Virus record (IMG/VR): IMGVR_UViG_3300025572_000006
Location: 1 to 37,640 of that record
Reading direction: 5' to 3' (one strand)
DNA length: 37,640 nucleotides
Source: a virus
Below are positions 128 to 25,743 of this stretch, in pieces; the first letter of the stretch is position 1, and each line of letters starts with the position of its first letter. A model generated the notes under the pieces. The model was not told the DNA's origin and did no database searches. It saw only the letters and a list, made by a program, of their open reading frames with translations. The position numbers were made by a program, and so were the translations under genes.

Positions 128-339
128 GCGTCACCGTCGTCAGTTAATCCGTTTTCTTTGGATTCTTTCTCGGCATCCTGCTTGTTTTCCGGTTCATTCT
201 GCGCTTCCGAGGTCGCAGTCGATGCTTTTGCATCGGCGTTTTCGCTGGCGCTAAGTTCTGCCAACGCGGAGTTTTCGCTAGAACCGAAGAGTTCTGCCGC
301 AGTGATGCGCTTTGCTTCGCTATTGACTGTTTCAGACAT
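1..339 (-). CDS. Scaffolding protein, N-terminal 113 codons (gene crosses the contig junction and continues 37513->36827)
   Basis: ATG at 339 overlaps the portal stop by 8 nt. Translation is MSETVNSEAKRITAAELF... with an acidic tract. Reading through base 1 into 37513 stays in frame (..KNKAL|EQELMFLREQILKS..), giving 341 aa in total. Confidence 0.7.
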   Translation of the reverse strand, partial: MSETVNSEAKRITAAELFGSSENSALAELSASENADAKASTATSEAQNEPENKQDAEKESKENGLTDDGDASSDDAESTDDEAQDEDDGEKKAAKGKGVTKRIQKLVRKNKAL

Positions 340-2506
340 GGTCAGCCTCCATGGGTGAACCCGGTGCTATATCCCCGCCGGTAGGGAGTTGATCATTCGG
401 CAAGCCAAAAGCTTCGGGCGCTAGCATTCCCGCTTGCTCTAACTCGCCGGTTTCAATTCCGTTTGATTGCATTGCCGCAACGTCTGCTGGCATTTCTCCA
501 GGAGCTACTTGCGGCGGCATTTGCGCTGCATTCATTTGATCAAGGAAATTTAAACGCGCTTCGATTTGTGCGATTTGCGCTGTGATCGCTTGAAGCGCGG
601 CACCAAAATCGCCAAGGTTCGCTTGAAGCTTCATGCGCTCAATTTCGAGGTCTTTTTCGATCTTGAGCGTTTCAATCCGCTCTTTCGATTGAAGTTCCAT
701 TTCTTTTGCAATGAGCGGATTTTTCGCTTTCTCAAGCTCAGCTTGCAGCGTTTGAATTGCGGCTTGCATTTGCTGGACTTGCGCCTGCACTTCGGGCGGA
801 AGCTGTATTTGATTTTCATCGCCCAAGATGTGCGGCGGAATCGTTCGACGAATACGTTCAGCAACTTCTTGTGCTTTCGGCCAATCCATCGCCTTGACCA
901 TAAGGTCGCCAGCAATGCCCATGATTTGCGGCGCCGCTTGTGCAATCTGCATCATGCTTGCCGCAGCTTCTTGACGCTTCGACATGTAGCTTGGGCCGCT
1001 CGTAATTCGAATGTCGTATTTGCAAGCCGAAAGATCGTAGATACGGCCATCGCCGTCCGGATTTTGCGAGTTAATGATCACAGTCTTGATTTCATCTTCG
1101 TTTCCAAGGATGCGAACGGCGCGCTCGGTGTCGTAAATCTTCGGAATGAGATCGACCAAAATGCGGCCGCAATGCTGCAAAGACGCGTCGAAATTATCTT
1201 GATAGTGATAGTTCGACGTTTGCGCCTGCATCGTGCGCTTTTGAATTGCGACACCGGACGTTTCGTTTGATTGCGCACCTAAGGCCGCATCGAAAACGCC
1301 AGTTGTGGCTTTTAAGTTTTCTGCCGCATGAAGTGCTGCTTGCGTGATTGCCGCAATTGGAGGTTCGACCGAAATCCGCTGCGGAACAAAACCGCTTTGG
1401 TCCGGTTCAAACGGCAAATAAGGCAAGTTTTCATCCGAACGGTCCCAGATTGGCTTAAACCGGTCGATGTTTTTCGGCGTCACAAGCCACGGCGCTTTCG
1501 GTGCAAGCGCAATTGCCTCGATTTTTGCCGATTCAAGCGCGTTAAACGCCATTTGCGGGTCACGCGCATCGGCCACCATTCCGCGGCGATGGATTTTTCC
1601 GTCGAGATAATACTCTTCACCGTAAACCGGAATAATCGGAATCCAACGGCCAGGCCAATCGGTCGCTTCCAAAATCTCGCAACCGTTGGTTTTCACCCAC
1701 TTGATTTGGCGAACCGTGACTTTGCGAGTTGTGCCTTCGATGACGCTTAGACCATTTGCGAAAAGATACTCTTGGTCTAATTCATCCTCGAAAAGCGTTT
1801 GTCCGTTTGAAAGGAGAAGAAGCGTTTTCTCCTGATAGTCGGAATAAAAATACTCCGCAATCCGCGTTGTTTTGTCGTTGAGGATGAAAGGATTGTCGCC
1901 GGTTCTAAATAGATCGTGTTTTGCAAGATCCGACTTCCGATAAAGACGCTTGTATTTTTCAATCGAAAGTTCTTCGGTAACAAACGCCCATTCGGCGTCG
2001 GATCCGTCGACTTCCGTCGAATGCGGGTCAAAATAAACCGAAAGCGGGTTGATGATGCGCTTAATTTTGATGTCGAGATTAAACGATCTTTCATCCGCGT
2101 ACTCGGTGAGAACGCGGAAGAATCCAAATCCGCCCGTGACTGCGTGTTCAAACGCCGTCGAGAATGCGGCCTTCGCGTTTGAGCCGTTCAAAATATAGCG
2201 AATCATTCCCTGAATGACTTCCGCAGTCGCCGGATCATTGTGATCGTCAACCGGAATCGCTTCAGGAGACGGGCTGTTTTGTTTTTGATCGTTTGTGATT
2301 TGGCGAATTGTGGGATTGATGCGGTTAAAGACCAAGCACGGTTTCCCGCGCTCTTTTCTTCTTCGTAAATCTTGATCGTCCCATTGCTCGCCGTAGCGAA
2401 AGCGAACGTCGCGCTTAAACTGCTCGCGTGCTTCGGAAAATGCATCTTCCGATTCTTTGAAACGCTCTTTAATTTCTTGTAGGAGTTCGGTTTCCGCTTT
2501 CGCCAT
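332..2506 (-). CDS. Portal protein (P22-type)
   Basis: 724 aa, directly after terL. N-terminal 'RFRYGEQWD..GKPCLVFNRI' portal-like motif. Long C-terminal coiled coil (QAQVQQMQAAIQTLQAELEKAK...). Synteny is terS-terL-portal-scaffold-coat. Confidence 0.85.
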   Translation of the reverse strand: MAKAETELLQEIKERFKESEDAFSEAREQFKRDVRFRYGEQWDDQDLRRRKERGKPCLVFNRINPTIRQITNDQKQNSPSPEAIPVDDHNDPATAEVIQGMIRYILNGSNAKAAFSTAFEHAVTGGFGFFRVLTEYADERSFNLDIKIKRIINPLSVYFDPHSTEVDGSDAEWAFVTEELSIEKYKRLYRKSDLAKHDLFRTGDNPFILNDKTTRIAEYFYSDYQEKTLLLLSNGQTLFEDELDQEYLFANGLSVIEGTTRKVTVRQIKWVKTNGCEILEATDWPGRWIPIIPVYGEEYYLDGKIHRRGMVADARDPQMAFNALESAKIEAIALAPKAPWLVTPKNIDRFKPIWDRSDENLPYLPFEPDQSGFVPQRISVEPPIAAITQAALHAAENLKATTGVFDAALGAQSNETSGVAIQKRTMQAQTSNYHYQDNFDASLQHCGRILVDLIPKIYDTERAVRILGNEDEIKTVIINSQNPDGDGRIYDLSACKYDIRITSGPSYMSKRQEAAASMMQIAQAAPQIMGIAGDLMVKAMDWPKAQEVAERIRRTIPPHILGDENQIQLPPEVQAQVQQMQAAIQTLQAELEKAKNPLIAKEMELQSKERIETLKIEKDLEIERMKLQANLGDFGAALQAITAQIAQIEARLNFLDQMNAAQMPPQVAPGEMPADVAAMQSNGIETGELEQAGMLAPEAFGLPNDQLPTGGDIAPGSPMEADHV

Positions 2507-2574: not shown

Positions 2575-4095
2575 TCAAAATCCCAACCCAGTTGAATTAA
2601 CATCGTACCGAACACCGATCGTGTCCGGCGTGAAGATCGATGCCGATGCATCAGGAAACTTGGCGCCAAAGTCCGAATCAAGAATGCGCGACATGCAATC
2701 AAGCATGTCGTCGTGGACTGCGACCGGAAACGCCGAATATTCGTCTTCGATAAACGCTTTCACAAAATCCACAACGCGACCTTCGTAGTTAACGAACGTG
2801 TGTTTTTCAGGGAGATAAAAGCGACCTTGCTCGAAGATCGGAACAAGACGCAAAATCCGATCTTCTTTAGCAAGACTTCCGCCTAGTTCAGTGATGTTGA
2901 AACGATAATTCTCTTGCTCTTGAACATATTTGATGTGTTCGATATCCGACTGCATTCCGTAGCGTTCGTAGCCGACTGCAATCGGCCGATATTTGCGGTG
3001 AAAATCAAAGAGTTTTCTTGTTCTTTCGGTGAGGTTTAGTCGATCTCTCACGCCATCAATTAAATAGTAGTTTTGGTCCGGCCCAAGACCAACTACATTA
3101 ATCACAGTGTAGTCGCTTGTTCGCTTCTTTTGACTTGCTGGATCAACAAGGATGTAGATGTTGAAGTTCGTGGTCGAATCAAGCCTCTTATAGAACCTAA
3201 GCCACTCTTCTTTAAAGCCCATTGCTTTATCCGCTACAGGGTTTTGTAGCATTTGCGAGCCGAACGTATACGGGCCCATGTCGCGGCGTTTTTCCATAAG
3301 TTCTTCACGACTAAGGAGAACAGGCTCGCCGTCAAGTGAGCCGTCTTTTGTTGCAGGATAGATGCGAGGCTTTGCTGTGCCTCGTTCTATGATTGTCCGA
3401 TACGTGTCATTTGCATGATAGCGCGTGCCGATAAATCTTCTTGCGCCGCCTTTTGCGCCGAGGTTGTAAGAGAGCTCAAGTGCTGCTGTTGTCTTTGCAA
3501 TCTGCTCAGGCGTCGTAACTGATTCACGCGTCACAATATCGTCGTAAACAAGAATGTCGAAGTGTTTCCCCGTTGGCTGTCCATCGACAACACCCCAAGC
3601 TTCGACCGTCGCTTCTTTTGGGTTTTTGTCGCGTTTTACGATGATACCAGAATCAAGCGACCACTTTTGCGCTTCTTTTTTCGGATCAGAATAAAGAATG
3701 TCAGGGAAAAGCGATTTCAAAAACGTGTTTTGCTCTAGTTCACGTTTGATTTGATCAAGGAACGCTTTCGCGATTGGTCTAGTGTGAGAGAAAATTCCGA
3801 TCGTGATGTTTGGATTAATCAAAATGTCTTGGATGGATTTTCCGAACGTAAGAAGAGTCGATTTGTAGTGTTCACGCGCCCACAAATCCAAATGTCCGTT
3901 CGGCGACGCTTCAACTTCTCTGCAACGATCATAAAGCCAATCGCGATCGATGTCTTTTCGCTTGCACGCAACCGTGAGAAGAAAAAACAAATCTTCTCGG
4001 CAAAGCCTGCGCATGGCCTCCGTATCGTTTGCCTCAAGGACTTCGAGATAAAGCCGATTTGATTGCGTGCGAGTCAAACCTTGGCAGAGCATCAA
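2575..4095 (-). CDS. terL: Terminase large subunit
   Basis: 506 aa. 'DLWAREHYKST', 'IGIFSHTRPIAKAFL' and 'FDILVYDDIVT' form the ATPase half. 'ILVDPASQKKRTSDYTVINVVG' starts the nuclease half. ATGA start/stop overlap with terS. Confidence 0.9.
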   Translation of the reverse strand: MMLCQGLTRTQSNRLYLEVLEANDTEAMRRLCREDLFFLLTVACKRKDIDRDWLYDRCREVEASPNGHLDLWAREHYKSTLLTFGKSIQDILINPNITIGIFSHTRPIAKAFLDQIKRELEQNTFLKSLFPDILYSDPKKEAQKWSLDSGIIVKRDKNPKEATVEAWGVVDGQPTGKHFDILVYDDIVTRESVTTPEQIAKTTAALELSYNLGAKGGARRFIGTRYHANDTYRTIIERGTAKPRIYPATKDGSLDGEPVLLSREELMEKRRDMGPYTFGSQMLQNPVADKAMGFKEEWLRFYKRLDSTTNFNIYILVDPASQKKRTSDYTVINVVGLGPDQNYYLIDGVRDRLNLTERTRKLFDFHRKYRPIAVGYERYGMQSDIEHIKYVQEQENYRFNITELGGSLAKEDRILRLVPIFEQGRFYLPEKHTFVNYEGRVVDFVKAFIEDEYSAFPVAVHDDMLDCMSRILDSDFGAKFPDASASIFTPDTIGVRYDVNSTGLGF

Positions 4096-4478
4096 TCGCC
4101 CTTAAGCTGCGAAAGCCTTTCTTCAATGTCGATCTTTGTGACCGTGACTTCGCCCTTGTGCGTTGTTTCGTTCGTGTTCTGGACCTTTTCTTTCTGATCA
4201 AGATGCTGTTTGCCAAGCCAAATGAGCATCGTGGTGTTACCAGCCATTGCGGTCTCAAATTGCTTGCGGCGAAGGCTGATTTTCCCGCGAGCCGCCTTTT
4301 TGGCGTAATGCTCCGCAAAAGTTACGCCGAATTCTTCTTTTACCCGGCGCTCGATCGTGTCTTCCGAGCAATCAAAAAAGCTCGCAATCTCTGAAAGTGT
4401 GCATTGCATATGACATAGTTTATCAAACTGATCCCAGTCGATTTCGATGCGCGGCCGGCCCATTTTTTTCTTAGCCAT
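4092..4478 (-). CDS. terS: Terminase small subunit (HTH)
   Basis: 128 aa immediately upstream of terL and translationally coupled to it. N-terminal HTH-like 'CTLSEIASFFDCSEDTIERRV'. Confidence 0.7.
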   Translation of the reverse strand: MAKKKMGRPRIEIDWDQFDKLCHMQCTLSEIASFFDCSEDTIERRVKEEFGVTFAEHYAKKAARGKISLRRKQFETAMAGNTTMLIWLGKQHLDQKEKVQNTNETTHKGEVTVTKIDIEERLSQLKGD

Positions 4479-5685
4479 TGATTAACTCCGCTTTCTTGCC
4501 TGTGTACTTTTCCCAGCGATTGATGATGATGTCGCAATACTTGGGGTCTATTTCCATCCCATACACGCGGCGCCCATGTTTCTCACACGCAATGAACGCA
4601 GTGCCAGATCCAGCGAACGGCTCATATAATAGGTCGCCCTGTTTGGTATGATTCTTAATAGGTATTTCGTACAAAAGAATAGGCTTCTGAGTGGGGTGTG
4701 GAGTCTTATCCTCTTTCGAGCCGCCCATTATGTGAGCTGGCGGTGCCGCATCCCAAACTGTGACCTGTTTGCGATCTCCGACCCAATTCGCATCACATCC
4801 TTTTCTAACTGCATACCAACAAGGCTCATGCTTCCAGTGATATGCAGATCTCCCCATTATCATTACTGACTTGTTCCATATTATCTGCTGTCGCACCTCG
4901 AAACCGGCTCGTCGAAGAGAATCCATAACAACATCAGTGAACGCTGATGCGTGCCAAACGTATGCAATATCAGCATTGCAGATCGCCCAGGCGTCGTACC
5001 AATCAGCCCTGTCATCATTACTAACTAGATTGGCGTTACAACTTCCAAGCTTCTTGTCGCCAAGAGCATCGTCTCTCCATGACAGATCCAGATTGACGCC
5101 ATAAGGAGGATCTGTGACCATAAGCAGCGCCTTCTCACCAGCCATCAACTTCTCAACATCATCAATGCTCGTCGAATCCCCACACATGAGCCGATGCCGT
5201 CCCAATCGCCAAATGTCTCCACGCTTTGTTATTGGCTCAACTGGCGCCGTTGGAACTTCATCCTCATCGCATTGCGGCTCAAATTCCTCCGGCAGTTTAA
5301 AATCCGGAATACCAAGAAGATCGAAGTCAAAATCAGGTCCCAAATCCAAAACGTCGTTCAAAACCATCGAAAGATCGGTTTCTGCGAGTTCTGCGATTTT
5401 GTTATCGGCCACCATATCGGCGTATTCGTCGGCTTCATTCGCGTAGTCCTGCCGATCAATCGGCGCTTTGGTCCAACCGTTGAGTTTTGCTGCCTCGAGC
5501 CGAGCATGGCCTTTAACGATGAACCCTGACCGATTCGACACCACGATCGGCGCTCGCCAACCTTGGTGCCTCATGATTTTTGCCAGAAGCTCGATTTGCC
5601 TTTTCGGATGTTTGTTCGGGTTCTTTGGATTCGGAACCAATAAATCAATATCGATAATTTCAGTGTGAGCGCATTTGATTTCCAT
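4471..5685 (-). CDS. ParB-like nuclease domain fused to a DPPY (N6-adenine type) DNA methyltransferase
   Basis: 404 aa. N-terminus 'LVPNPKNPNKHPKRQIELLAKIMRHQGWRAPIVV' is ParB/Srx-like. 'LMVTDPPYGV' is motif IV and 'YEPFAGSGTAFIACEKHGRRVYGMEIDPKY' is motif I. Confidence 0.85.
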   Translation of the reverse strand: MEIKCAHTEIIDIDLLVPNPKNPNKHPKRQIELLAKIMRHQGWRAPIVVSNRSGFIVKGHARLEAAKLNGWTKAPIDRQDYANEADEYADMVADNKIAELAETDLSMVLNDVLDLGPDFDFDLLGIPDFKLPEEFEPQCDEDEVPTAPVEPITKRGDIWRLGRHRLMCGDSTSIDDVEKLMAGEKALLMVTDPPYGVNLDLSWRDDALGDKKLGSCNANLVSNDDRADWYDAWAICNADIAYVWHASAFTDVVMDSLRRAGFEVRQQIIWNKSVMIMGRSAYHWKHEPCWYAVRKGCDANWVGDRKQVTVWDAAPPAHIMGGSKEDKTPHPTQKPILLYEIPIKNHTKQGDLLYEPFAGSGTAFIACEKHGRRVYGMEIDPKYCDIIINRWEKYTGKKAELING

Positions 5686-5748: not shown

Positions 5749-5776
5749 TTGATCTTCGAGAATGTTTTCATAGAAT
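5749..5776 (+). promoter_or_regulatory. Candidate sigma70-type promoter giving a leaderless transcript of the RHH-like gene
   Basis: TTGATC (5749-5754), 16-nt spacer, TAGAAT (5771-5776), then 6 nt to ATG 5783. No Shine-Dalgarno sequence precedes the ATG. Confidence 0.35.
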
Positions 5777-6013: not shown

Positions 6014-6038
6014 AAAATAAAAAAGCCCCGATCGGGGC
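6014..6038 (-). terminator. Rho-independent terminator (second of a tandem pair)
   Basis: On the minus strand: GCCCC-GATC-GGGGC hairpin followed by TTTTTTATTTT. Confidence 0.75.
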
Positions 6039-6196
6039 GTCCTCTGCGGATTGATATATGATCGAACTGATATTTGCGATATTTCTGATCTCAGAAAAAC
6101 TCGTATTTCTCGATGAACCGATTCCATCGAGTCTTTGTCTAGAACTAAATGTTCTCGCGTCGCATGTCGATGAGAGAAAACTCATGAGTGAGGTCG

Positions 6197-6226
6197 AAAA
6201 AAGATGGCGCGGAAACGAACCGCGCC
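6197..6226 (-). terminator. Rho-independent terminator after the HTH gene
   Basis: On the minus strand: GGCGCGG-ttcgttt-CCGCGCC hairpin, then ATC TTTTTT. It lies 43 nt downstream of the stop at 6269. Confidence 0.8.
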
Positions 6227-6268
6227 TTGAAGCTTTTCATACGTTTTGGGAAAACAGAGATATATGCA

Positions 6269-6478
6269 CTATTTCTGACCGACCTTGATTTGCCATAGTT
6301 CCCATTTCGCCGGATCCATTTTTCTATCGCCAGCTTCCCAATACTGCCAAGCGCGCAGAGTCGCTCCGATCAAAGCGCCAGCTTCTTTTTGCGTGAGACC
6401 GGCTTTTTCGCGTGCCTTACGGACCTCGGCGGGCGTTGGGGTTTTGCGTTTTGGTGCTGATGTCATACAATCACCCAT
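6269..6478 (-). CDS. XRE-family helix-turn-helix protein
   Basis: 69 aa. 'PTPAEVRKAREKAGLTQKEAGALIGATLRAWQYWEAGDRKM' is a classic HTH_XRE pattern. An alternative ATG at 6466 has the better SD (GGTGA). Confidence 0.7.
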   Translation of the reverse strand: MGDCMTSAPKRKTPTPAEVRKAREKAGLTQKEAGALIGATLRAWQYWEAGDRKMDPAKWELWQIKVGQK

Positions 6479-7064
6479 TCAAATGGTCTCTGTATTCGAT
6501 CATTTTTTCTGCCAGTGCCTCGGCACCGCCAACGATTGCCCAGTTGTCGGCGGCAAGCTCTTCGCAAATTTTCTCGGCCTCTTTTTCAATCTCTTCGTCA
6601 CTAGTTTCGGCGCTAACATCTAACGTGTCGTGGTTGTCGTACACGAAATCATCAGCGGTTAAAAACTGCGCACAATCAGCGTCGTCAATGTTCGTTTCGA
6701 GCCAATGTTCGAGTTCAGCGATTGCTGCGGTCGCGTCGTCCGAGTAGACGCCGACAACGTTTTTGCCGTCGAACTCTGTATCGTAACCGTCGATTATTCG
6801 TTCGCAGAGGCGGCGAAATTCGGCATTCTGAAACACGCGGTTGAGCGCCCGACCGGTGATGTTGTTCGGAACACAAAATTCCAGACAATGACGATAATAA
6901 ACATCACTCGGAGTTGCGTCTGTTATATATCGCGTTGCAGCCGCCGTCACTGTTTCTGTTTTGCAGTCAATTTGAATAGCGGCAGGCTCTGGCTCAAATT
7001 GCCCAGCTGGCCAATCCAAAATCGGCAATAAATCATTTTCGTCGAACTGTTCAAACGTAATCAT
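6471..7064 (-). CDS. Highly acidic 197-aa protein of unknown function
   Basis: Strong SD (GCGAGGTGAAAAATG). By hand count about 45 D/E against 13 K/R. The C-terminal half is almost all acidic helices (SAETSDEEIEKEAEKICEELAADN). Confidence 0.7.
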   Translation of the reverse strand: MITFEQFDENDLLPILDWPAGQFEPEPAAIQIDCKTETVTAAATRYITDATPSDVYYRHCLEFCVPNNITGRALNRVFQNAEFRRLCERIIDGYDTEFDGKNVVGVYSDDATAAIAELEHWLETNIDDADCAQFLTADDFVYDNHDTLDVSAETSDEEIEKEAEKICEELAADNWAIVGGAEALAEKMIEYRDHLNG

Positions 7065-7088
7065 TTTTCACCTCGCTATCGCTCATCC

Positions 7089-7262
7089 TCATTTTTGTTC
7101 AAAAATCTCCTCTTCCAGCTCGTCCGGATCGCAGTAGACAGTAACAACGTTTCTGTCGATGTCGTAATCAGCTCCTAGTTTCGCGACTATAGAGAGCAAC
7201 TCGTGCAGCGGAATTTGACCGAACTCTGTACCGTCAGCGGTTCTCACCCACACTTTTTTCAT
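7089..7262 (-). CDS. Hypothetical 57-aa protein (below the ORF-track cut-off)
   Basis: ATG 7262 is preceded by the same AGCGAGGTGAAAAATG cassette as its neighbours. Translation is MKKVWVRTADGTEFGQIPLHELLSIVAKLGADYDIDRNVVTVYCDPDELEEEIFEQK. Confidence 0.55.
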   Translation of the reverse strand: MKKVWVRTADGTEFGQIPLHELLSIVAKLGADYDIDRNVVTVYCDPDELEEEIFEQK

Positions 7263-7316
7263 TTTTCACCTCGCTATTTTGCTCCAACTAAACACAAATA
7301 CTTTGATGCGTCAGCT

Positions 7317-7550
7317 TTATTGGAACTTTGCGAAATCTTCTGAAAATTCAAACTCGGAGTTCAAAAAATCGACAACCTCATCGAGTTCCGCTGCGAGATT
7401 CCTATCGTGCCTCACAACAAAAAGCATTCCATTGTCGGCTATTCCGAGTTCGAAATCGGGCGAGTAGTTTTTGTCATGGAACGTTTCTCTTACTTTTTTT
7501 TCGAGATAGTTAGTAATGAACTGCTCGATAACAAACTGGTAGTTTCTCAT
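7317..7550 (-). CDS. Hypothetical 77-aa acidic protein
   Basis: ORF with the TGCGAGGTGAAAAATG initiation cassette. It is the first gene downstream of the 7616-7644 promoter. Confidence 0.6.
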   Translation of the reverse strand: MRNYQFVIEQFITNYLEKKVRETFHDKNYSPDFELGIADNGMLFVVRHDRNLAAELDEVVDFLNSEFEFSEDFAKFQ

Positions 7551-7615
7551 TTTTCACCTCGCATGTTTTGTTTTTTGTTTTGTTGTTTCAGCACCATTGC
7601 CGCATCAACAAATTC

Positions 7616-7644
7616 AGTATACGAACACTGTTCGCAAAAATCAA
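7616..7644 (-). promoter_or_regulatory. Sigma70-type promoter with an embedded palindromic operator
   Basis: On the minus strand: TTGATT, 17-nt spacer, TATACT. The spacer contains the palindrome CGAACA-G-TGTTCG (7622-7634). Confidence 0.6.
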
Positions 7645-8035
7645 CAAAAAATGCTGCAAAACGTAATTTTTTCATGCTCAAAAACCCACGTGATTTCAAG
7701 TACTTATGCTGCCTGCGCGAATAAGATCAGCGCTTTGATCTTATTTTGATACGTCCTGGCGGTCTATTTGGCGGGCATGGGTATATCTATATATATAATC
7801 AGTCACGAATAAGACTGAAAGCAACCTGCAACTGTTCGCCGTTCCGGCACTGGATACCGAACACGTCCAAACACCATTTAATGTTAGAGCTTATTGTTTC
7901 AACTTTATCGTCGTGTGATCGAACAACACGCCCCGTGTATCTTTGTAAACAAAAATTATTTTCGCGCATGAAGCGTTTTGATGTTCACCCATTCACAACA
8001 AGGCGCCTTGTCGATCGCTTTGTTATCAAAAACGA

Positions 8036-9413: not shown

Positions 9414-9521
9414 TCACCCCTGTTTCGTTTCAGCGTCACCGCTCGGACACTCACACGCACTCCAGTTATCGCAAATAGCGCAGTACCTTCGATCATCTGC
9501 CATTTGAGCCAACATTCTCAT
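9414..9521 (-). CDS. 35-aa Cys-rich peptide
   Basis: MRMLAQMADDRRYCAICDNWSACECPSGDAETKQG. ATGA overlap with the C5-methylase stop. Confidence 0.4.
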   Translation of the reverse strand: MRMLAQMADDRRYCAICDNWSACECPSGDAETKQG

Positions 9522-10564
9522 GCTATGAACTCCTTCGCCGCTTTGATGAATTCCGCCGCCGCTTGGGCAACGATTGCATTGCCGTAACACCGCAATCGTC
9601 CCACTCTTTCGGGAGCCCCATTAGCCAACGGGAATGTGCCGGGTTCAACTGGCCGAAATTTCCCGTCTCGGCAAAAGATCCAGTCAGCAGGCCCCCAGAA
9701 TCCACGAGTTGCGCTTGCAAATTGAGGGATGTCAGCGACACTCCGATACTCAAGCCTGATTCCTTTACAGCTTTCTTCCTCGCCAAGAATTGCTCCGGTG
9801 TGCTGCCCGTGGCATCGTTCGCGATCGGTGATGGCCATGCCGCGAGTGACGCTATCGTGAAAAGTTTCCGACCCGTGGACTTCATCGGTTCCACTCCGCC
9901 CGTGCAATCGCAGGCCCGCGGACTCGGCCAAGTCGCAAGCGCTGCCGCTACCGGTAATCGATCGATCTCCTGATTCGAGCCGCCATTCGGCCCATCTTGC
10001 GCGCACGTTGTGGGCCACGAACCAAATTCTGGATCGGATGTGCGGCGCGCCGACGCCACAAGCTGGAAATACGATCGGCGCGATGGCGTAACCTTCTCCT
10101 TCCAAGTCAGTCGATACAATGTCGAGCCAAGCGATGCCGTCACGAGACGCAACCTGTTCGCCAAAGATTGTGTCAGGGCGATACTCTCGAATGAGCCACT
10201 GCCATGCGGGCCATAAGTGCCGCTCGTCAGAAGTCCCTTTTCTTCTGCCTGCCGCGGAGAAAGGTTGACATGGACACGAGCCAGTCCAGACCGGCTTGTC
10301 ATCGGGCCATCCTGCGAGTCGGAGCGCGTAGGACCAGACGCCGATTCCGGCGAAGAAGTGATGTTGTGTGAATCCTTCAAGATCGCTTGGTCTGACATCC
10401 CTGATATCCCTTTCATCGACTTCGCCAGCAGCGATAAGTCCTTCCTTGATGAGTTCACGAAGCCATGCTGCTGCTTTCGGATCGATCTCGTTGTAATAGG
10501 CCCTCATCGAGCGTTGTCCTTCAGAATCGTTGTCGGACCGTGAGTTACTAAATAGATGTCGCAT
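9518..10564 (-). CDS. DNA (cytosine-5)-methyltransferase (frame A)
   Basis: Motif I 'FFAGIGVWS', IV 'GSCPCQPFSAAG', VI 'FGEQV', VIII 'GAPHIRSRIWFVA', X 'YGNAIVAQAAAEFI'. The likely true start is ATG 10507 (MRAYYNEIDP...). Confidence 0.85.
   Translation of the reverse strand: MRHLFSNSRSDNDSEGQRSMRAYYNEIDPKAAAWLRELIKEGLIAAGEVDERDIRDVRPSDLEGFTQHHFFAGIGVWSYALRLAGWPDDKPVWTGSCPCQPFSAAGRRKGTSDERHLWPAWQWLIREYRPDTIFGEQVASRDGIAWLDIVSTDLEGEGYAIAPIVFPACGVGAPHIRSRIWFVAHNVRARWAEWRLESGDRSITGSGSACDLAESAGLRLHGRSGTDEVHGSETFHDSVTRGMAITDRERCHGQHTGAILGEEESCKGIRLEYRSVADIPQFASATRGFWGPADWIFCRDGKFRPVEPGTFPLANGAPERVGRLRCYGNAIVAQAAAEFIKAAKEFIA
9523..10302 (-). CDS. Nested same-strand ORF in another frame (frame B): WPxP-repeat / 'LNPAHSRWLMGLP' protein
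   Basis: Open for 311 codons (9523..10458). ATG 10302 has an AGGA 7 nt upstream. Three W-P-[ST]-[TP]-x-A-x-D-x-x-G repeats and 'QLNPAHSRWLMGLPKEWDDC' resemble TRD/motif-IX regions of phage C5-methylases. Confidence 0.4.
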   Translation of the reverse strand: MTSRSGLARVHVNLSPRQAEEKGLLTSGTYGPHGSGSFESIALTQSLANRLRLVTASLGSTLYRLTWKEKVTPSRRSYFQLVASARRTSDPEFGSWPTTCAQDGPNGGSNQEIDRLPVAAALATWPSPRACDCTGGVEPMKSTGRKLFTIASLAAWPSPIANDATGSTPEQFLARKKAVKESGLSIGVSLTSLNLQAQLVDSGGLLTGSFAETGNFGQLNPAHSRWLMGLPKEWDDCGVTAMQSLPKRRRNSSKRRRSS

Positions 10565-10583
10565 CGAACGTAATAATCATGCC

Positions 10584-12048: not shown

Positions 12049-12236
12049 CTGCGCCCTCCGCGCTTGATTCCAATCCGCCACTTTTCCAGTTCATCAAAAC
12101 GCTTGATCCAATCAAGCATCGTCGAGTGACTAACGCCGAGCGATTTCGCCGCTTTCACGGGATTGCCTGCAAACATCTCAAGTCTTTCATTCGCAAGTTT
12201 CAGTTTGATTTCGTGAAGCGTTGGTAAGTTGTTCAT
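12045..12236 (-). CDS. Small HTH DNA-binding protein (63 aa)
   Basis: 'AAKSLGVSHSTMLDWIKRF' is HTH-like. 4-nt overlap with the methylase stop. Confidence 0.55.
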   Translation of the reverse strand: MNNLPTLHEIKLKLANERLEMFAGNPVKAAKSLGVSHSTMLDWIKRFDELEKWRIGIKRGGRR

Positions 12237-13669
12237 GCGATCTCCAACTCAAGTTGCGTTTTAAAATTCCAATCCTCTATGCGCTTCAAAGCCATTTCCC
12301 GATATTCCGGGTTTATTTCTATGCCGAGAAATTGGCGTCCGTGTTTCTTACAAACAATTCCGGTTGTGCCAGCCCCGGCGAATGGGTCAAGCACCAAATC
12401 GCCAGGTCGTGAGCCAGCGAGAATACAAGGCTCGATCAAATCTGGGGGGAATGTTGCTAGATGAGCGCCTTTGAATGGCTTGGTCGAAACCGTCCAGACC
12501 GAGCGTTTGTTCCTCGTGTTGTTGGGAATCCTCTGCCTTACTTTTTGGGCACGACCAAGTTGATGTTCCCCGGTTTTCCCAGTGTGAAACTGAGATCCGC
12601 GCCAGCCGCAAGTAGCCGGTTCTTTAATCGCCTCATTATCGAAGAAGTAACGCTCCGATTTCGCGAGTAAAAAAATGTACTCGTGCGCTTTGGTGCATCG
12701 ATCGCGCACTGATTCAGGCATCGGGTTCGGTTTGTGCCAGATCACATCCTGCCGGAGATACCACCCAGGCTCTACAGCAATCCTCGGTTCGACCATCCAA
12801 GATGGAAGATCGACATTCTCACGAGCATTCAGCTTCTGGAGTATTTCTCTGCACAGCAACTGCTTTGCGAGAGCGTCCTCTGGGATCTTTGCGCCTCGCT
12901 TCGTTTCGTAGCTGTCTCGAACGGTTTGCAGGTTGTAAGCGACAACAGCCTGCTTTCTCTTAACCAACAGGTACGGATAGATCTCGGCCAAGATGTCGGC
13001 AGCCTTCCTGCTGTGTATGCGCCACTGGTAGGAACCTCGCTGTCCGCCTTGGGACGGCGGTTCCTGCTTGGGAGATCCCTTTCCGTACCCGGTAATTTCA
13101 CAGCAGCGAATGATTGGCTCAGGGTCGCACATCCGCACCTGAAGGATTGGCGGGTAACTGTTTCCTGACCCATGCCCGGACTTGCACTCAAGCGCGGTGA
13201 TGCAACCTTCACCGTCGATCAGCGCCGCCAGCCATGCGCGGTCGATCCTGTCCTTGATCCGGACGCGCTCGTACGGCTGTTGCAGTGCGAATGCAAGACG
13301 CCAAGGAATGCCGACTAGGTCTTTAGGTTTGAGGCCATTTGGAATTTTGCAGGACTTTCCTAGCTGAAAATGAGTCCCTTTGTTTGACGATTGTTTGTCG
13401 GAAAGCTTTAACGAACCTCGGCCCTGTCCACCGGCGTAACTATCGCCAAGGTTGAGCCACAGCGTTCCGTCATCTTTCAAAACACGTCGAACTTCTCGAA
13501 ACACTTCAACTAACTTCTCGACGTATTCTTCCGGCGTTTTCTCAAGGCCGATCTGTCCATGAACTCCATAATCGCGCAGTCCCCAGTATGGCGGGGACGT
13601 AACGCAAGTTTGCACCGACTCAGACTCAAGAGTTTTCAATGTTTCTAGCGCGTCGCCGAGAAGAATCAT
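12233..13669 (-). CDS. SPPY-type (N4-C/N6-A, beta-class) DNA methyltransferase with an inserted LAGLIDADG-like module
   Basis: 'CVTSPPYWGLRDYG' is motif IV. Also 'GWYLRQDVIWHKPNPMPESVRDR' and 'VLDPFAGAGTTGIVCKKHGRQFLGIEINPEY' (motif I). About 169 aa are inserted at 12770-13276, containing 'AWLAALIDGEGC'. The start is set at ATG 13669 (ATGA coupling). Confidence 0.85.
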   Translation of the reverse strand: MILLGDALETLKTLESESVQTCVTSPPYWGLRDYGVHGQIGLEKTPEEYVEKLVEVFREVRRVLKDDGTLWLNLGDSYAGGQGRGSLKLSDKQSSNKGTHFQLGKSCKIPNGLKPKDLVGIPWRLAFALQQPYERVRIKDRIDRAWLAALIDGEGCITALECKSGHGSGNSYPPILQVRMCDPEPIIRCCEITGYGKGSPKQEPPSQGGQRGSYQWRIHSRKAADILAEIYPYLLVKRKQAVVAYNLQTVRDSYETKRGAKIPEDALAKQLLCREILQKLNARENVDLPSWMVEPRIAVEPGWYLRQDVIWHKPNPMPESVRDRCTKAHEYIFLLAKSERYFFDNEAIKEPATCGWRGSQFHTGKTGEHQLGRAQKVRQRIPNNTRNKRSVWTVSTKPFKGAHLATFPPDLIEPCILAGSRPGDLVLDPFAGAGTTGIVCKKHGRQFLGIEINPEYREMALKRIEDWNFKTQLELEIA

Positions 13670-13848
13670 GCGTTCCTCTTCATGCGTTGAATTCTCGCCT
13701 CGAGGCGAATGCATCTGACTTCGAGTTTCAAAATCCGCTCTCGTAACGTTTTGTTTTCCTCGATCGTGCGAATGAGTTCCTCGCGCAGCCAATTCATGTG
13801 CTGTTCGCGTTCATCGTTATATGTGTTCGGATGATAAACTGTTGACAT
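13666..13848 (-). CDS. Hypothetical 60-aa coiled-coil protein
   Basis: MSTVYHPNTYNDEREQHMNWLREELIRTIEENKTLRERILKLEVRCIRLEARIQRMKRNA. Its stop overlaps the methylase ATG (ATGA). Confidence 0.45.
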   Translation of the reverse strand: MSTVYHPNTYNDEREQHMNWLREELIRTIEENKTLRERILKLEVRCIRLEARIQRMKRNA

Positions 13849-15502: not shown

Positions 15503-16597
15503 TCACACTGACACCTCATCAATTAAGTCGATTGTGTTGAGAAGATCCTCGTCCGAAAGGTTGAGATAAACTTTCTGATACATCCGAAGGCTCATGCCCA
15601 ATATTGTGCAGGCAATCGCTGGATTGACGCCACGTTTCGCAAACTCTGTGGCTCTTGAATGCCGAAGGTCATGGAATCGAAGGCGACCTTTGATGCCAGC
15701 GGCTTGCTTTACAGCTTTCCACTCTTTGTCGATGATTTGAGCCGGGATGTGTTTATCCCCGCGCTTGGCAGGAAAAAGAAACCGGCTATCTCCTGACGCC
15801 TTGATTGCTTTCTCAAGCAAATGTTCAAGAGACTTTGGGACACCGAGAACACGCGGAAGTCCGGTTTTCGTATCGTCTTCGGTGAGAATAATAAAATAAC
15901 GTCCGTTCTTCTTGTATATGCGCTTTTTCTCAAGTGCTCCGATTTCCATTTTTCGCATTCCGAGAATATCGCCGAGACCAATGATGAGTTTTGCACGATC
16001 GGAGCCGTGCTTTCTCAACGCTTCGCGTTCCTCATCCGTAATCACGCGACCTTTCTTTTTGTCGTGATGGCGTTTCTCGGACTTCGGAAGTTTTAACTCC
16101 GGCATTTGGTCCGGCGTAATAGCGCCAGCCTTGAGCATGAAATGAAAGATGTTTCCAAGGTACTTATAGATATTAAAAACCTGGCCGTCGCTTCTTTCGC
16201 GATACCAAATAAGAAAGTCAGAGATGATCCCTTTATGAATTTGATCAGGTCTTAAATTTCCAAAATATGGATTGATGTGATTCTTAACGATGCTATCGAA
16301 TTTCTTAAGCGTGGCATCTCTCGTTTCGTTTGCCACTTTCTCTTTTCGCAAGTCTTCTATGTATTCTTTTATGAGTTTCGCGGGCGCATTCTTTTCTTTC
16401 GGCGTCTCTTTCCCGAGCTCTTCAAGCGCCCTCGGAAGAAAATTAAGAGCTTCAAGGTAACTTGTCGTTTGAAGGCTTTTCTTTCTGATTTTATTGCCGA
16501 CACGAATAACGGCCCAAAAAATACCGCTCATCTCATCGCGATAAAGATGAGATACTGAGTTGCCTTTTTTGTCGCGGTACTTTTTTAGCTTCGACAT
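15503..16597 (-). CDS. int: Tyrosine integrase
   Basis: 364 aa. C-terminal catalytic 'RFHDLRHSRATEFAKRGVNPAIACTILGMSLRMYQKVYL' (H-x-x-R ... Y) and upstream 'GMRKMEIGAL' (Arg I box). Confidence 0.9.
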   Translation of the reverse strand: MSKLKKYRDKKGNSVSHLYRDEMSGIFWAVIRVGNKIRKKSLQTTSYLEALNFLPRALEELGKETPKEKNAPAKLIKEYIEDLRKEKVANETRDATLKKFDSIVKNHINPYFGNLRPDQIHKGIISDFLIWYRERSDGQVFNIYKYLGNIFHFMLKAGAITPDQMPELKLPKSEKRHHDKKKGRVITDEEREALRKHGSDRAKLIIGLGDILGMRKMEIGALEKKRIYKKNGRYFIILTEDDTKTGLPRVLGVPKSLEHLLEKAIKASGDSRFLFPAKRGDKHIPAQIIDKEWKAVKQAAGIKGRLRFHDLRHSRATEFAKRGVNPAIACTILGMSLRMYQKVYLNLSDEDLLNTIDLIDEVSV

Positions 16598-17602: not shown

Positions 17603-17808
17603 ACAGCATGCTCCAATTGTTCTTTTAGAAACGCCTCGCCTAGTTTTTCTGCGAAACGGGCGATTTCGTCCGCCGAAAACGCCTCGGTTACATTAATACC
17701 ACGAAACGTCACGCGAACATTGCCGACGCGAACGCGGCCGCTTCGATATTCAACGTCGCCTTCGATCTCAAATTCTTCTTCGATGTCGATATAAATGCTG
17801 TGATTCAT
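17599..17808 (-). CDS. Hypothetical 69-aa protein
   Basis: ORF in the coupled chain after recT. Confidence 0.5.
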
Positions 17809-18779
17809 GATACACCCTTGGCTTGTTTGTAAAGACTTGGACCATCCCAGTCGGGAACATCGAAACTCTCATCCGTAGTGACTTCGTGCATTTTCGATGC
17901 ATCACGCGAGTCAAGCCATGCCGTTGCTGCCGTCAAAAACTCGGCGACTTGTCCTTTGATCGTTTGTCCTTTCGCAACGGCCTCGTTTTGAATGAATTCG
18001 ACATATCGAGCGAGTTCGAAAATGTCGATGTCCTTGATCTTCATGCCAGGCGTGCCGTCTTTTTTGGGGCCAAACTTTCCGAACGTGACAACGTACTCGC
18101 CAGGATCTTGCTCGGCTTTCTTCGAATTTTCCCGCGCAGCCTTAAGCGGATTTTCGCGTTTCCGTTTTGATTTTTCGTTTTCGGACTGTGAATCAGCCTG
18201 CGCCATTTCGTCGGACGTGTATAGACCGGACATTTCAGCTGGAAACGCTTTCCGCAACGCAAGCGCCTCAGCGACTTTCGCAAGCATTAGATCGGGCATT
18301 TTTGCCCACATCATCATGGGCTTTCCGTCGCGATCGGTTTGAACGTAGGACTCCCAACGCGCGACCGCCCAAAGCGGCTCTTTGAAATCCGCATGAATCA
18401 CGCCGATTTTTGCCGCGGCAGGTGGTTCATCCGACAGCCAAACATCAACCCAATTCCCATCTTTTCCGCACCAATACGGGCCAACCTGGCCTTGGTATTT
18501 CCCGGTTCGTGCTGCGATCAAACGGAAGCCGTCGATCGACGTTTGAATCGACATAACCTCACGCTGTTCTTTTCGGTCCCATCGTTTGACGGCATAAACT
18601 TGACGCGCAAACGGATCAAGGCCAGTGCGTTTTGCGACATGCAGGAACAATTGCAGTTCATCGTCAGTAGCGCCTTTGCAAATCGTACGCTTCAAAAGTT
18701 CAACCTGCTCGCGAGTCCAAACGGCAGCAACAGGCGCTTGATTTTGACCGTTTTGCGTTGTCATCAATTCGTTAGACAT
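17805..18779 (-). CDS. recT: RecT/Bet-family single-strand annealing recombinase
   Basis: 324 aa. '[21 protein letters not shown]', '[13 protein letters not shown]' and '[36 protein letters not shown]' are typical RecT motifs. Confidence 0.85.
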
Positions 18780-23222: not shown

Positions 23223-25733
23223 TTAGCGGGGACCTTCGCAAGTGACATTCACCAATCCATCTATACCCGAAGCGCTTGTACTATGCCAAACTGCCACATT
23301 GATCGACGTTGCACTCTCACTGTGCCCCTGGCCGGCGTAAGCGGTTGGTGCACCTGCGTTTGCAGACGAGAAATTGCATCTTGGTGTGGACGAGAAAACA
23401 CCGGATCTGACTGCTATGTTGCATCGTCCGGTGGAAACCTGGCTTACGGAAGAAACCCAAGAGCCAATTTGAAGGGTAACTTCTGGTGTCGAATCACAAT
23501 CAATAAGAGCAGATTCAACTCGCATATTGCTAGTAATCCAAACCCATCGCGTCCCATTCGATTGCAGCCCAACGGTATCGCCTTGCAAGTGGATAACTGT
23601 ACTCGTTGCTGTTCCGTAACCAATGTTCTGTCCGCCAATTGTGGCGATCGTCACAAGGTTTGCGCTTGAATCTGTTTTGGTAACGAAGAACTTCTTACCT
23701 TTGAATGCCGCAGCATCTGGAAGCGTGATTGTGACAGCGCCGCCGGACGCATCGACTTCAACGGTTTCGTCTTTGTCGGTCAGAGAGTAGTTTGATGAAA
23801 CGGTCTTTACTGTATTGATTGTCGTGACTCCAGGATACGGAGTCGTTACCGCGTGCTTCACGAGCGGCTGATACGTGTGAGTCGCGATTATGCAAGGTGT
23901 GAGAGCGATGTTTGCTGGCCGGGTTTCTCCCGTAACGTTTTGAAGACCACCGTCCGTTAGGCCCAGTCTCGCGGATCCTGTAGGAACGGTAGATGGGGGG
24001 TTGTGTGGATTCGCATACACTGGCACCGACTGAACGACACTATCATATCCCGGTACGTGTCCATGCTCGGGGGCGGAGGCCATCATATAGTACTGATTGT
24101 TATGGTCCCACCCAAATGGGAGTATGTGCTTGTGAGAACTCAGGCTTTGTCCCTGTTTTTCACCAAGCGTTGCAGAGTAGGCGACTCCGCCAATCTCCTG
24201 CGAACCTGCGCCTCGAATGAAGATACCGCGAAGATCGGGCAGCGTATTCGAACCGCGTCGTGCAATTAGTTCAGAATACTCCGGTGGTATCGTCCCGCCG
24301 TTGGCGTGCAACGTACCAGGGGGGCAAGTCGCTTGTTCTGTGTATATGATTGTACCAAGTAAGTCCGCACCTTGCCCAACGCGCACGACTTGTTCGGATT
24401 CGAGCGGGAACTTTTCAACGAAGAAACGTAGGTCTGGTATATTGTTAGTTGCATTAACTTCAATGTTACAGCTACCACCCGCTGACATTCTCGCAGCAGC
24501 TATACTAACAGCCACGTTTGTTCTAGGTTGTGTAGCAATAAATCCGCCAGTAATTTCTCTGCTTCGCAGGAAATTTACGCCTGTTGATGTGCTATCCTGC
24601 GACGATTCGCCTAAAACAGTCGAACCGTCCACTAGTGCAAATTTACAGTGAATATTTTGATTGTTCGAATGAACAGTAAAATCACCGCTCGCAGTAATTC
24701 TGTAATAATAACCAGGCTCAACCTTTGGGATCACAAAGCCAGGGATTTTAGTGCTGGGTGCTGCAATGTTTCCAGTTGTGGTAGGAGTTGCGCAGTTTGT
24801 GTTTGCGCTAGGTACAGTATAGCTGGAACTGGTCACACTCCAGTCGCACGAAGGCGCCGATGGATAAGTCAATGTTCCAACGAAAGTAGCCTGCGCAACG
24901 GAGCCTATCCCATCCCATGGACCAACACGTGCACGTGCAAAACAAACTTTACCAGTGTTTGAGTTTGTCGGCCTGATGCGAATTCCAACGCCAGTGAGCA
25001 TCGCAGACCCAACTGACGTGACATCAAATTCGCGCCATTTGAAATCGCCAGGAATATCAAGAGCGTTTGCAACTGTCGCAGGACCTGCACCGACCAAGTG
25101 CATAGCCTCGACTTTCAGTCCTTCAAAACTTGCTTTGACCCAAATCTTGTGGCCAAGATTCACACCATCGACGTTACTGAATCCAAGCGCATCAGGCGAA
25201 ATGTCGGCAATTTGCGAAATAACAGCATTCGCTGAGCCTTCCCAATCAACACAAATTGTAGTGACATTCGGTCCGAGTGCTTCGTCTTCTTCGACTTCGT
25301 AATCAAGGCCACTAACGGTCGTCCAACCCTCAAGGCTTCCGTCTTCAAAAGTAGGATTGGTGAGGAAGTTGATTCCGTCGGAACCGCCGCCGCCAGCTCC
25401 TGCGCCGATTTGTTTTTCGTTGTCGCTTGAATCAAGCGTGTAGCACTTCCCATCGTCCTTGCAGTAAATCTTCTTTTGTCCGGCCGGTGGCGGCGTGGGT
25501 TTCGCTGAGAGTTCTTCGACCGTTAAAGCGCCTTCGATTTGAGGATTCTCGAGCGTTTTGTTTTTAAGCGTGTCTTCGGTCTCTTTTCCGACAAGTGTAT
25601 CGCTCGCATCCGGCATAAGCCACGTTTTCGATCGATCAGGCGAGCGAATCGCATCGCCAGTGAGATAACTCACGCCAAATGCCTGCGAGTGAATAAAGCT
25701 AATGAGAAGAAAATAAATAAACACTGAACGCAT
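23223..25733 (-). CDS. Tail-fibre-like protein with a phage tail-collar domain and an N-terminal signal-peptide-like segment (836 aa)
   Basis: The start is set at ATG 25733 (GAGAGG upstream), 10 nt after the previous stop. N-terminus is 'MRSVFIYFLLISFIHSQAFG'. Collar motif 'PPGTLHANGGTIPPEYSELIARRGSNTLPDLRGIFIRGAGS...SSHKH'. Confidence 0.75.
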   Translation of the reverse strand: MRSVFIYFLLISFIHSQAFGVSYLTGDAIRSPDRSKTWLMPDASDTLVGKETEDTLKNKTLENPQIEGALTVEELSAKPTPPPAGQKKIYCKDDGKCYTLDSSDNEKQIGAGAGGGGSDGINFLTNPTFEDGSLEGWTTVSGLDYEVEEDEALGPNVTTICVDWEGSANAVISQIADISPDALGFSNVDGVNLGHKIWVKASFEGLKVEAMHLVGAGPATVANALDIPGDFKWREFDVTSVGSAMLTGVGIRIRPTNSNTGKVCFARARVGPWDGIGSVAQATFVGTLTYPSAPSCDWSVTSSSYTVPSANTNCATPTTTGNIAAPSTKIPGFVIPKVEPGYYYRITASGDFTVHSNNQNIHCKFALVDGSTVLGESSQDSTSTGVNFLRSREITGGFIATQPRTNVAVSIAAARMSAGGSCNIEVNATNNIPDLRFFVEKFPLESEQVVRVGQGADLLGTIIYTEQATCPPGTLHANGGTIPPEYSELIARRGSNTLPDLRGIFIRGAGSQEIGGVAYSATLGEKQGQSLSSHKHILPFGWDHNNQYYMMASAPEHGHVPGYDSVVQSVPVYANPHNPPSTVPTGSARLGLTDGGLQNVTGETRPANIALTPCIIATHTYQPLVKHAVTTPYPGVTTINTVKTVSSNYSLTDKDETVEVDASGGAVTITLPDAAAFKGKKFFVTKTDSSANLVTIATIGGQNIGYGTATSTVIHLQGDTVGLQSNGTRWVWITSNMRVESALIDCDSTPEVTLQIGSWVSSVSQVSTGRCNIAVRSGVFSSTPRCNFSSANAGAPTAYAGQGHSESATSINVAVWHSTSASGIDGLVNVTCEGPR

Positions 25734-25743
25734 ATGACGCCTC

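Follow-up and report, generated by a model that had tools for sequence, protein, structure and literature searches.

What kind of unit is the four-gene cassette that lies on the minus strand of a metagenome-derived phage genome, between the early/DNA-modification genes and the packaging genes? The cassette belongs to the 37,640-nt IMG/VR record IMGVR_UViG_3300025572_000006, whose full length is referred to here as the window, and it encodes proteins of 77, 57 and 197 amino acids (aa) followed by a small helix-turn-helix (HTH) protein. An earlier note on this DNA had listed these four genes, all of which are present, and had proposed an operon of the anti-defence type that has a promoter, an operator and an aca-like repressor of its own. 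That proposal is supported by the homology of the HTH protein to the repressor Aca10, by the operator, which is a variant of the Aca10 site, and by cargo resembling the anti-CRISPR (Acr) protein AcrIE3 in sister cassettes. Taken as a whole, the region 7795..6058 is probably a mobile, Aca10-regulated acr-type anti-defence operon of a P22-like temperate phage. The locus is very likely an Aca10-regulated acr-type operon, because its regulator and its operator are homologous to a biochemically characterised Aca10 pair, and there is a good chance, through guilt by association, that its cargo acts in anti-defence. We infer from sequence the repression in this phage, as well as the anti-defence activity of the cargo and its targets.

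For finding new anti-CRISPR and anti-defence genes, no markers are more reliable than Aca-type repressors, and the last gene of the cassette encodes a homologue of one. Searched against PDB sequences with phmmer, its product finds 7XI5 (Aca10) as the best match (E value 5.6e-16, residues 8-62), and BLASTP gives 54% identity to Aca10 over 54 residues (E 4e-22). Aca10, first named by León et al. 2021 (PMC7913775), represses the acrIC7-acrIC6-aca10 operon in Pseudomonas citronellolis, and 7XI5 is its PDB entry (Lee et al. 2022, PMC9410881). Scans of Pfam and NCBIfam return only generic HTH families, all below their cut-offs, and the protein is 64.5% identical to the HTH protein of a cassette in Ralstonia phage Raharianne. 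The P. citronellolis protein (WP_074980464) is 65 aa long, as are the orthologues in two related phages, L004 and L116, and consequently the start at 6466 is more likely than that at 6478. Thus, the XRE-type HTH ending at 6269 that had been described stands, but its length of 69 aa most likely has to be corrected to 65 aa. The protein is an Aca10-family homologue.

The residues assigned to DNA contact in Aca10 point in the same direction. Q22, R34, Q37 and R44, which have been mutated or proposed as contacts, with R44 being critical (PMC9410881), correspond to Q26, R38, Q41 and R48 in the window protein and are all identical. Aca10 Q38 corresponds to Y42, and a Tyr at the Q38-equivalent position has been noted for Aca2 in the same study (PMC9410881). 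In Aca10, G49 is essential, the G49Y substitution abolishing dimerisation, and E52 is involved in the symmetric dimer interface (PMC9410881); of these two, E52 is kept (E56), and G49 is replaced by Ala (A53) in both the window and L004 proteins.

A second set of matches could suggest that the HTH protein is an MqsA/Xre-type antitoxin, which would make the cassette a toxin–antitoxin or abortive-infection module. The protein weakly matches Pfam MqsA_antitoxin (E 9e-5; 23 bits, cut-off 30), the MqsA family TIGR03830 (31.8 bits, cut-off 61.8) and a solved MqsA structure (E 2.6e-4). The match to Aca10, however, is 12 orders of magnitude better than that to the MqsA structure, and the zinc-ribbon toxin-binding domain of MqsA is absent from the window protein, which spans 65 aa compared with 131 aa. 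Neither the cargo nor the neighbourhood includes anything toxin-like, all three cargo proteins are acidic, the HTH gene is the last of its operon, and the cargo swaps freely among phages. With sub-threshold MqsA matches and no toxin, this explanation is very improbable and was rejected.

The regulator gene is the distal end of a transcription unit whose promoter, TTGATT-N17-TATACT, is present where the earlier note had placed it (Table 1). The description of this promoter as a good σ70 promoter holds for its elements, but its 9/12 consensus match is by itself not above chance, as four such sites were found against 4.1 expected in shuffled sequences. The −35 element, the palindrome, the −10 element and the beginning of the leader form a block of approximately 60 nt that shows 100% identity to L004/L005 and to L001/L116, while the coding genes in the same comparison have diverged to 77-84% protein identity; this argues for a real promoter. 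A chance match was consequently rejected. A public gene call places a 42-aa open reading frame (ORF; 7547-7675, minus strand) across the promoter and the operator, and it is probably spurious.

The palindrome that had been seen inside the promoter spacer is confirmed, and its core, CGAACAGTGTTCG, is the sole perfect copy in the window. The minimal Aca10 site, as defined by electrophoretic mobility shift assay, is ATACGCTCA-T-TGAGCGTAT, with a 1-bp spacing, and lies in a TTGCAA-N16-TATTCT promoter with its right end overlapping the −10 element (PMC9410881). The window site, TTGCGAACA-G-TGTTCGTAT, has the same 1-bp spacing, the same promoter register and the same overlap, so that in both loci the space between −35 and −10 is filled by the palindrome, which has TAT in common with the −10 element; 7 of the 9 positions of the proven TGAGCGTAT recur in the right arm of the window site. 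Unlike the P. citronellolis site, where the half-site centres are GCTCA/TGAGC, those of the window are GAACA/TGTTC. By its spacing, register and overlap, the window palindrome is a naturally occurring variant of the operator proven for Aca10.

This operator was compared across 57 Aca10-like genes from GTDB species genomes (L055-L111), mostly of Beta- and Gammaproteobacteria and including the P. citronellolis locus. The motif CGnnCAnTGnnCG is found upstream of aca in 42 of these loci, nearly always in promoter context, with 48 matches in 147 kb of upstream sequence versus 2 in 146 kb downstream, which marks it as specific to the regions that precede aca10 genes. The window variant, CGAACAnTGTTCG (CGAACA-N-TGTTCG), also occurs at three of the loci (L089, L097 and L104). 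The repressors appear to change together with the site. In nearly all GCTCA-type proteins, a conserved L-T-Q is followed by a Thr; this Thr is missing from all five GAACA-type proteins (those of L089, L097, L104, the window and L004), and in four of the five, Q38 of Aca10 is replaced by Y or L. Proteins of the CGAACAnTGTTCG loci hold K, A or S after L-T-Q, whereas those of the ACGCTCAnTGAGCGT loci hold T there and Q at the Q38 position; the window protein differs from Aca10 accordingly, with T23 changed to K and Q38 to Y. This covariation provides indirect support for the HTH protein reading the palindrome, as does the fact that the operator is perfectly conserved, and the covariation constitutes a candidate specificity code of the Aca10 family. 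The cassette of phage Raharianne has the same general order: a TTGACA-N17-TATATT promoter that contains the canonical site ATACGCTCATTGCGCGTAT comes first, small acidic ORFs come next, and behind them lies the HTH gene.

Apart from the operator, the window and the acrIC7-acrIC6-aca10 locus have in common a 65-aa, four-helix HTH protein encoded last, with conserved DNA-contact residues, and small acidic cargo genes upstream of it. Contrary to the P. citronellolis locus, the window carries three cargo genes, unrelated to those for AcrIC6 and AcrIC7 and including one whose 197-aa product is unusually large for an Acr; it has a convergent 76-aa gene joined to the 3′ end of aca, and the element that holds it is a P22-like metagenome phage. 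The Aca10 system was characterised at a single Pseudomonas locus; with this cassette, it would reach a lineage of uncultivated P22-like phages, take in a naturally occurring operator variant whose changes are matched in the recognition region, and gain a set of candidate cargo proteins.

The description of the cassette as self-contained is borne out by its boundaries, since the homology with L004 begins at approximately 7795 and ends exactly at 6058. The flanks differ among the phages that carry it: L004 has a tail fibre gene upstream of it and a lysis amidase gene on the far side, L116 has a lysis amidase gene beside it, and in the window the neighbours are methylase and terminase genes. Under the same promoter/operator and with the same aca, the cargo sets encode proteins of 77, 57 and 197 aa in the window, of 117, 57, 95 and 197 aa in L004/L005/L006, and of 160 and 215 aa in L116/L001. 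Variable small cargo in a conserved promoter/operator–aca frame, at differing genomic positions, is therefore found in three phages. By these comparisons, the cassette is mobile and its cargo can be exchanged.

The sister cassettes also hold the link to a known inhibitor. AcrIE3 is a type I-E anti-CRISPR that was first described in a Pseudomonas phage. The 160-aa protein of L116/L001 is homologous to AcrIE3 in its N-terminal 60 residues (PDB 8HEL/8ZEY, E 4e-4). L001, a related phage of 41.7 kb, carries two cassettes. That at 19975-20585, the counterpart of L116 6843-8318, has the promoter/operator of the window and encodes the 160-aa protein with the AcrIE3-like N-terminus, the 215-aa protein and aca10. 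The other, at 9467-11342, has a promoter that differs from that of the window and encodes a 98-aa protein, a 59-aa AcrIE3 homologue (E 3e-5), a member of DUF8280 (the family of the 197-aa protein) directly downstream of that homologue, a 115-aa protein and a DUF7447 protein. Unlike these cassettes, the window has no AcrIE3 homologue, and the 57-aa protein at the equivalent position is unrelated; a known or demonstrated Acr was not found among the window cargo, AcrIE3 homologues being confined to the sister cassettes. The 215-, 117- and 95-aa proteins of the sister cassettes have no PDB match. Variable small acidic genes, a conserved promoter and aca, and Acr homologues in the same frame together compose the picture of an acr locus. 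As a separate observation, the intergenic joints of both L001 cassettes have in common a CCCCGC...GCGGGG hairpin and a GAGGTGAAA start region.

None of the window cargo proteins matched a significant family in our Pfam, PHROGs and NCBIfam scans, and neither of the two small ones is related to AcrIE3, AcrIC6 or AcrIC7. The 77-aa protein is without a match in Pfam, PHROGs, NCBIfam or PDB, and other genes take its place in L004 and L116. The 57-aa protein is 84% identical to its L004 copy, has only 7 relatives among 5.8 billion proteins, and is also found in L112 under an unrelated promoter. Its AlphaFold2 (AF2) model, with a predicted local distance difference test score (pLDDT) of 92, shows a beta-beta-alpha-beta-beta-alpha order, and the sole structural resemblance, a weak one, is to the N-domain of translation initiation factor IF3 (Foldseek against PDB, E 0.05).

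A further feature of the cargo genes is the 15-nt linker GCGAGGTGAAAAATG, a strong Shine-Dalgarno sequence plus start codon that precedes each of the three in identical form. Outside the cassette, it is absent from the 37.6 kb even with 2 mismatches allowed (0.15 occurrences expected), and L004 has four copies of it and L001 close variants. The aca gene has its own, weaker initiation region. Strong cargo linkers together with a weaker aca start would fit a high output of cargo and a low output of repressor. The identical GCGAGGTGAAAAATG joints could, in addition, serve as recombination points at which cargo is exchanged, in which case the cassette would be a modular plug-in.

These features suggest the following course of events. 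Upon DNA entry, the host RNA polymerase would fire the strong, conserved σ70 promoter. Identical strong ribosome-binding linkers would direct the translation of each of the three acidic cargo proteins, which would be made fast. Most likely, they would then bind and block host immune proteins, among which type I CRISPR-Cas effector complexes are the likeliest targets. The last gene, with its weaker initiation, would yield a dimeric 65-aa Aca10-family repressor, and the accumulating repressor would bind the 19-bp TTGCGAACA-G-TGTTCGTAT, which fills the −35/−10 spacer and overlaps the −10 element. Occupancy of the operator is predicted to occlude RNA polymerase and to shut the operon down, and transcripts would be terminated at T1.

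The largest cargo protein, of 197 aa, holds 45 D/E against 13 K/R, exactly as had been counted before (net charge −32, isoelectric point (pI) 4.05). Precomputed Pfam annotation assigns PF26929 (DUF8280) to exactly this protein and its relatives; our Pfam scan returned nothing for it because the PF26929 model is newer than the Pfam copy scanned. Close relatives of the protein number 6 among 5.8 billion proteins, and a DUF8280 profile search of 1.84 billion cluster representatives retrieved 917 members at E<=1e-3, counted as clusters at 50% identity. Members share the motifs PQP, WDGxNxVG and DAxxA, and occur in viral contigs with GC contents from 35% to 73%, in Streptomyces plasmids and in a Chromobacterium phage-plasmid. 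A tblastn search with a distant member found 17 plasmids, mostly of Streptomyces, and nothing in phages.

Structure gives few further leads on this protein. Its AF2 model (pLDDT 83), compared by Foldseek with 350,542 PDB chains, reaches a best E value of 1.4, and in BFVD it has one match, to an uncharacterised phage protein; the DUF8280 profile finds nothing below E 0.09 among PDB sequences. No published function for PF26929/DUF8280 was found in the literature, the cluster names are uninformative, and a first set of ten long DUF8280-containing proteins has no informative fusion partner. The family that the earlier note had left unrecognised is therefore DUF8280, with no enzymatic or structural homologue found, so that no homologue unrelated to defence speaks against an anti-defence role.

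The genetic context of DUF8280 is more telling. A small XRE-type HTH gene follows on the same strand in the window and in L004, L011, L024 and L034. Other members are fused to such a domain at the C-terminus, namely P0020, which carries HTH_17 (E 3e-12), and WP_331718698.1 from a Streptomyces sp. NBC_00212 plasmid (L117 2498-3514), which carries an HTH_31/Aca2_YdiL-like domain whose similarity to Aca2_YdiL is near threshold (E 1.2e-4). Self-regulating fusions of an Acr and an Aca have been described for AcrIIA1, AcrIIA13-15 and AcrIF24 (PMC9410881), and these DUF8280 fusions resemble them; in the window, unlike in those proteins, the putative inhibitor and the regulator are separate genes. Three independent lines of context thus implicate DUF8280: adjacency to Aca10, adjacency to AcrIE3 and fusion to HTH domains. 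On this basis, we tentatively suggest, at somewhat below even chances, that DUF8280 is a new and very widespread phage and plasmid anti-defence family, ranging from Proteobacteria to Streptomyces, with an unseen fold and present either as cargo of aca operons or fused to an HTH domain. As a large, orphan and mostly acidic phage/plasmid family with a novel predicted fold, it is the main prize of this locus: if validated, it would represent a broadly distributed inhibitor family, possibly with a new mechanism of inhibition, and if not, the locus would be one more acr-like operon from a metagenome. In a distant phage (L011), a tRNA-like 3′ fragment recognised by eye at 5800-5860 lies just upstream of the promoter of a DUF8280/77-aa/HTH cassette, and it may be an attachment-site remnant at a module junction.

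The acidity of the 197-aa protein raises a question of mechanism and target within the anti-defence reading, namely whether the protein is a DNA mimic in the style of Ocr (T7 gp0.3) and ArdA, titrating restriction–modification or bacteriophage exclusion (BREX) enzymes, instead of a CRISPR-specific inhibitor. Like Ocr and ArdA, it is strongly acidic, belongs to a phage- or plasmid-borne family, is expressed from its own promoter and lies near DNA-modification genes, in this case three DNA methyltransferase genes, near the packaging end of the genome. The family as a whole is acidic (median net charge −25.5, 97% with pI<5), with the charge mostly in the C-terminal half, and in other phages DUF8280 adjoins the terminase or starts an operon. 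Nevertheless, no Pfam match to ArdA, Ocr or ArdB/KlcA appears even at E<=1, no solved structure reaches a Foldseek E<1, the profile search of PDB sequences is empty, and the conserved motifs PQP, WDGxNxVG and DAxxA are not acidic arrays. Among full-length relatives, the two closest (56-58% identical) carry net charges of only −6 and −9, and consequently strong acidity is not required in the subfamily. The Ocr/ArdA-style mimicry that the earlier note had considered plausible for this protein thus finds no support in sequence or fold and is rather doubtful.

A broader alternative is that the locus is a generic accessory ("moron") operon for host takeover, superinfection exclusion or lysogenic conversion, which merely has an Aca10-like autorepressor. 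Several results weigh in this direction, or more generally against an anti-defence operon. Many Thiobacillus-type Aca10-like loci (L064-L080, e.g. L072 2850-4474) are without a cargo gene: the canonical operator lies approximately 120 nt upstream of the HTH gene, a tyrosine integrase gene directly follows it, and an AlpA-like ORF precedes it. Aca10-type repressors also occupy the edges of integrative elements, and because these cargo-free, integrase-linked loci exist, membership in the Aca10 family is no proof of an anti-CRISPR context. None of the 57 genomic Aca10-like loci, that of AcrIC6/AcrIC7 included, holds a homologue of the DUF8280, 57-aa or 77-aa protein, nor of the other cassette proteins. 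The window cargo matches no known anti-defence protein in Pfam, PHROGs, NCBIfam, PDB sequences or PDB folds, and all three cargo proteins are without an assigned function. Approximately 32 of 37 DUF8280 loci show no detectable HTH neighbour, although the resulting association rate is a lower bound, as the census of neighbouring ORFs is noisy in high-GC contigs, and DUF8280 often stands without an HTH gene or a known Acr, beside DnaB in Streptomyces plasmids or after PAPS-reductase-like genes. Neither GenBank phages nor 185,579 species genomes contain a close relative: the cassette DNA has no near-identity match in 50,697 GenBank phages, tblastn of the 197- and 57-aa proteins against the same phages finds nothing, and scans for close DUF8280 relatives returned none from the species genomes and only the L004 contig from IMG/VR.

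Two neighbourhoods speak against the accessory operon: in a sister phage, the same promoter/operator/aca frame carries an AcrIE3-homologous N-terminus, and in L001 the gene immediately preceding DUF8280 encodes an AcrIE3 homologue. Small, acidic orphans exchanged from phage to phage are, moreover, typical of acr loci, and the majority of AcrIC proteins have been described as acidic (León et al., PMC7913775). The fusions of DUF8280 to HTH domains, finally, parallel the known Acr-Aca fusions. A generic accessory operon is thus an unlikely explanation, and the Aca10-regulated anti-defence operon is preferred.

Returning to this operon, its downstream end is formed by the terminator T1, whose sequence is conserved in L004 and L005 and lies inside the antisense of the 76-aa ORF. 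T2 lies beyond the conserved block of the cassette and is not conserved in L004, and judged by its position, it is part of the local phage backbone. Both of the terminators that the earlier note had described as a tandem pair are therefore present, but they flank a real convergent gene, and the ~170 nt between them are not an empty spacer.

The convergent 76-aa gene has no family match, and the homology with L004 stops exactly at its ATG. Between the window and L116, its substitutions fall 13/4/39 on the three codon positions (p<0.0001), with 26 of the changed codons synonymous and 16 non-synonymous, and each of the three pairwise comparisons shows the third-position bias (p 0.004 to <0.0001). 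As the bias holds in three phages, the ORF can be regarded as a gene travelling with the cassette. Its position is the same in L116, immediately after a gene for an Amidase_2 endolysin; in L004, the preceding gene encodes 66 aa. A small RNA between T1 and T2 was considered and rejected, because a coding gene fits the third-codon-position bias better and Rfam returned no RNA family in the window or in this region. By overlapping the end of aca, the gene could provide antisense or additional control.

Table 1. Features of the cassette and of the surrounding phage genome (positions in the window; dG, free energy; z, z-score).
Feature	Position	Strand	Details
Upstream leader	7645..7795	-	Hairpin, CACGTG motif, A/T-rich tract just upstream of -35
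Leader hairpin AATAAGATCA-N6-TGATCTTATT	7745..7720	-	dG -9.6, z -2.8
Sigma-70-type promoter	7644..7616	-	-35 TTGATT 7644..7639; 17-nt spacer; -10 TATACT 7621..7616
Aca10-type operator TTGCGAACA-G-TGTTCGTAT	7637..7619	-	Core CGAACAGTGTTCG 7634..7622; right arm shares TAT with -10
5′ untranslated region stem-loop	7579..7612	-	Imperfect inverted repeat, 15-nt arms, 80% complementary
Initiation linker GCGAGGTGAAAAATG, 15 nt	7562..7548, 7274..7260, 7076..7062	-	3 identical copies
Cargo 1, 77-aa acidic protein	7550..7317	-	pI 4.5; orphan
Cargo 2, 57-aa acidic protein	7262..7089	-	pI 4.35
Cargo 3, 197-aa DUF8280 (PF26929) protein	7064..6471	-	
aca10-like repressor gene, 65 aa	6466..6269	-	Alternative start 6478 gives 69 aa
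Convergent 76-aa gene	6058..6288	+	Hydrophobic N-terminus; 20-nt overlap with aca 3′ end
Intrinsic terminator T1	6226..6197	-	7-bp all-GC stem and U-tract; dG -15.3 kcal/mol, z -3.9
Terminator T2	6038..6014	-	dG -12.2 kcal/mol, z -1.8
Portal	2506..332	-	
Large terminase	4095..2575	-	
Small terminase	4478..4092	-	
ParB-N6 DNA methyltransferase	5685..4471	-	
Methyltransferase 2	10564..9518	-	
Methyltransferase 3	13792..12233	-	
Integrase	16597..15503	-	
RecT	18779..17805	-	
Tail fibre	25832..23223	-	

At the opposite end of the cassette, the homology of the leader with L004/L005 sets in at its outer border despite different upstream genes, and the leader is also found in L001 and L116. The arms of its hairpin, AATAAGATCA and TGATCTTATT, form a perfect 10-bp match approximately 80 nt upstream of the −35 element. 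The stem-loop of the 5′ untranslated region is located near the predicted transcript start, in a region conserved in L004 and L001. These two conserved inverted repeats, which flank the promoter, might act as an insulator or as an mRNA stabiliser.

The window as a whole is the nearly complete genome of a temperate P22-like phage, with nearly all genes on the minus strand and no tRNA gene, and its terminase has only remote relatives among GenBank phages. One of the three methyltransferase genes, at 12233-13792 on the minus strand, encodes a 519-aa protein that matches DNA methyltransferase profiles and, in residues 183-324, an HNH-endonuclease profile. A 69-aa basic ORF (5783-5992, plus strand) lies on the strand opposite to the ParB-methylase/terminase operon, in the interval that separates this operon from the cassette. 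It is also predicted by the Joint Genome Institute (JGI) gene caller and is preceded by a promoter-like site at 5749-5776. Its product has no family match; by eye, it resembles a ribbon-helix-helix protein (KPLTIWIRPEEK, then helices), and it might regulate the adjacent late operon.

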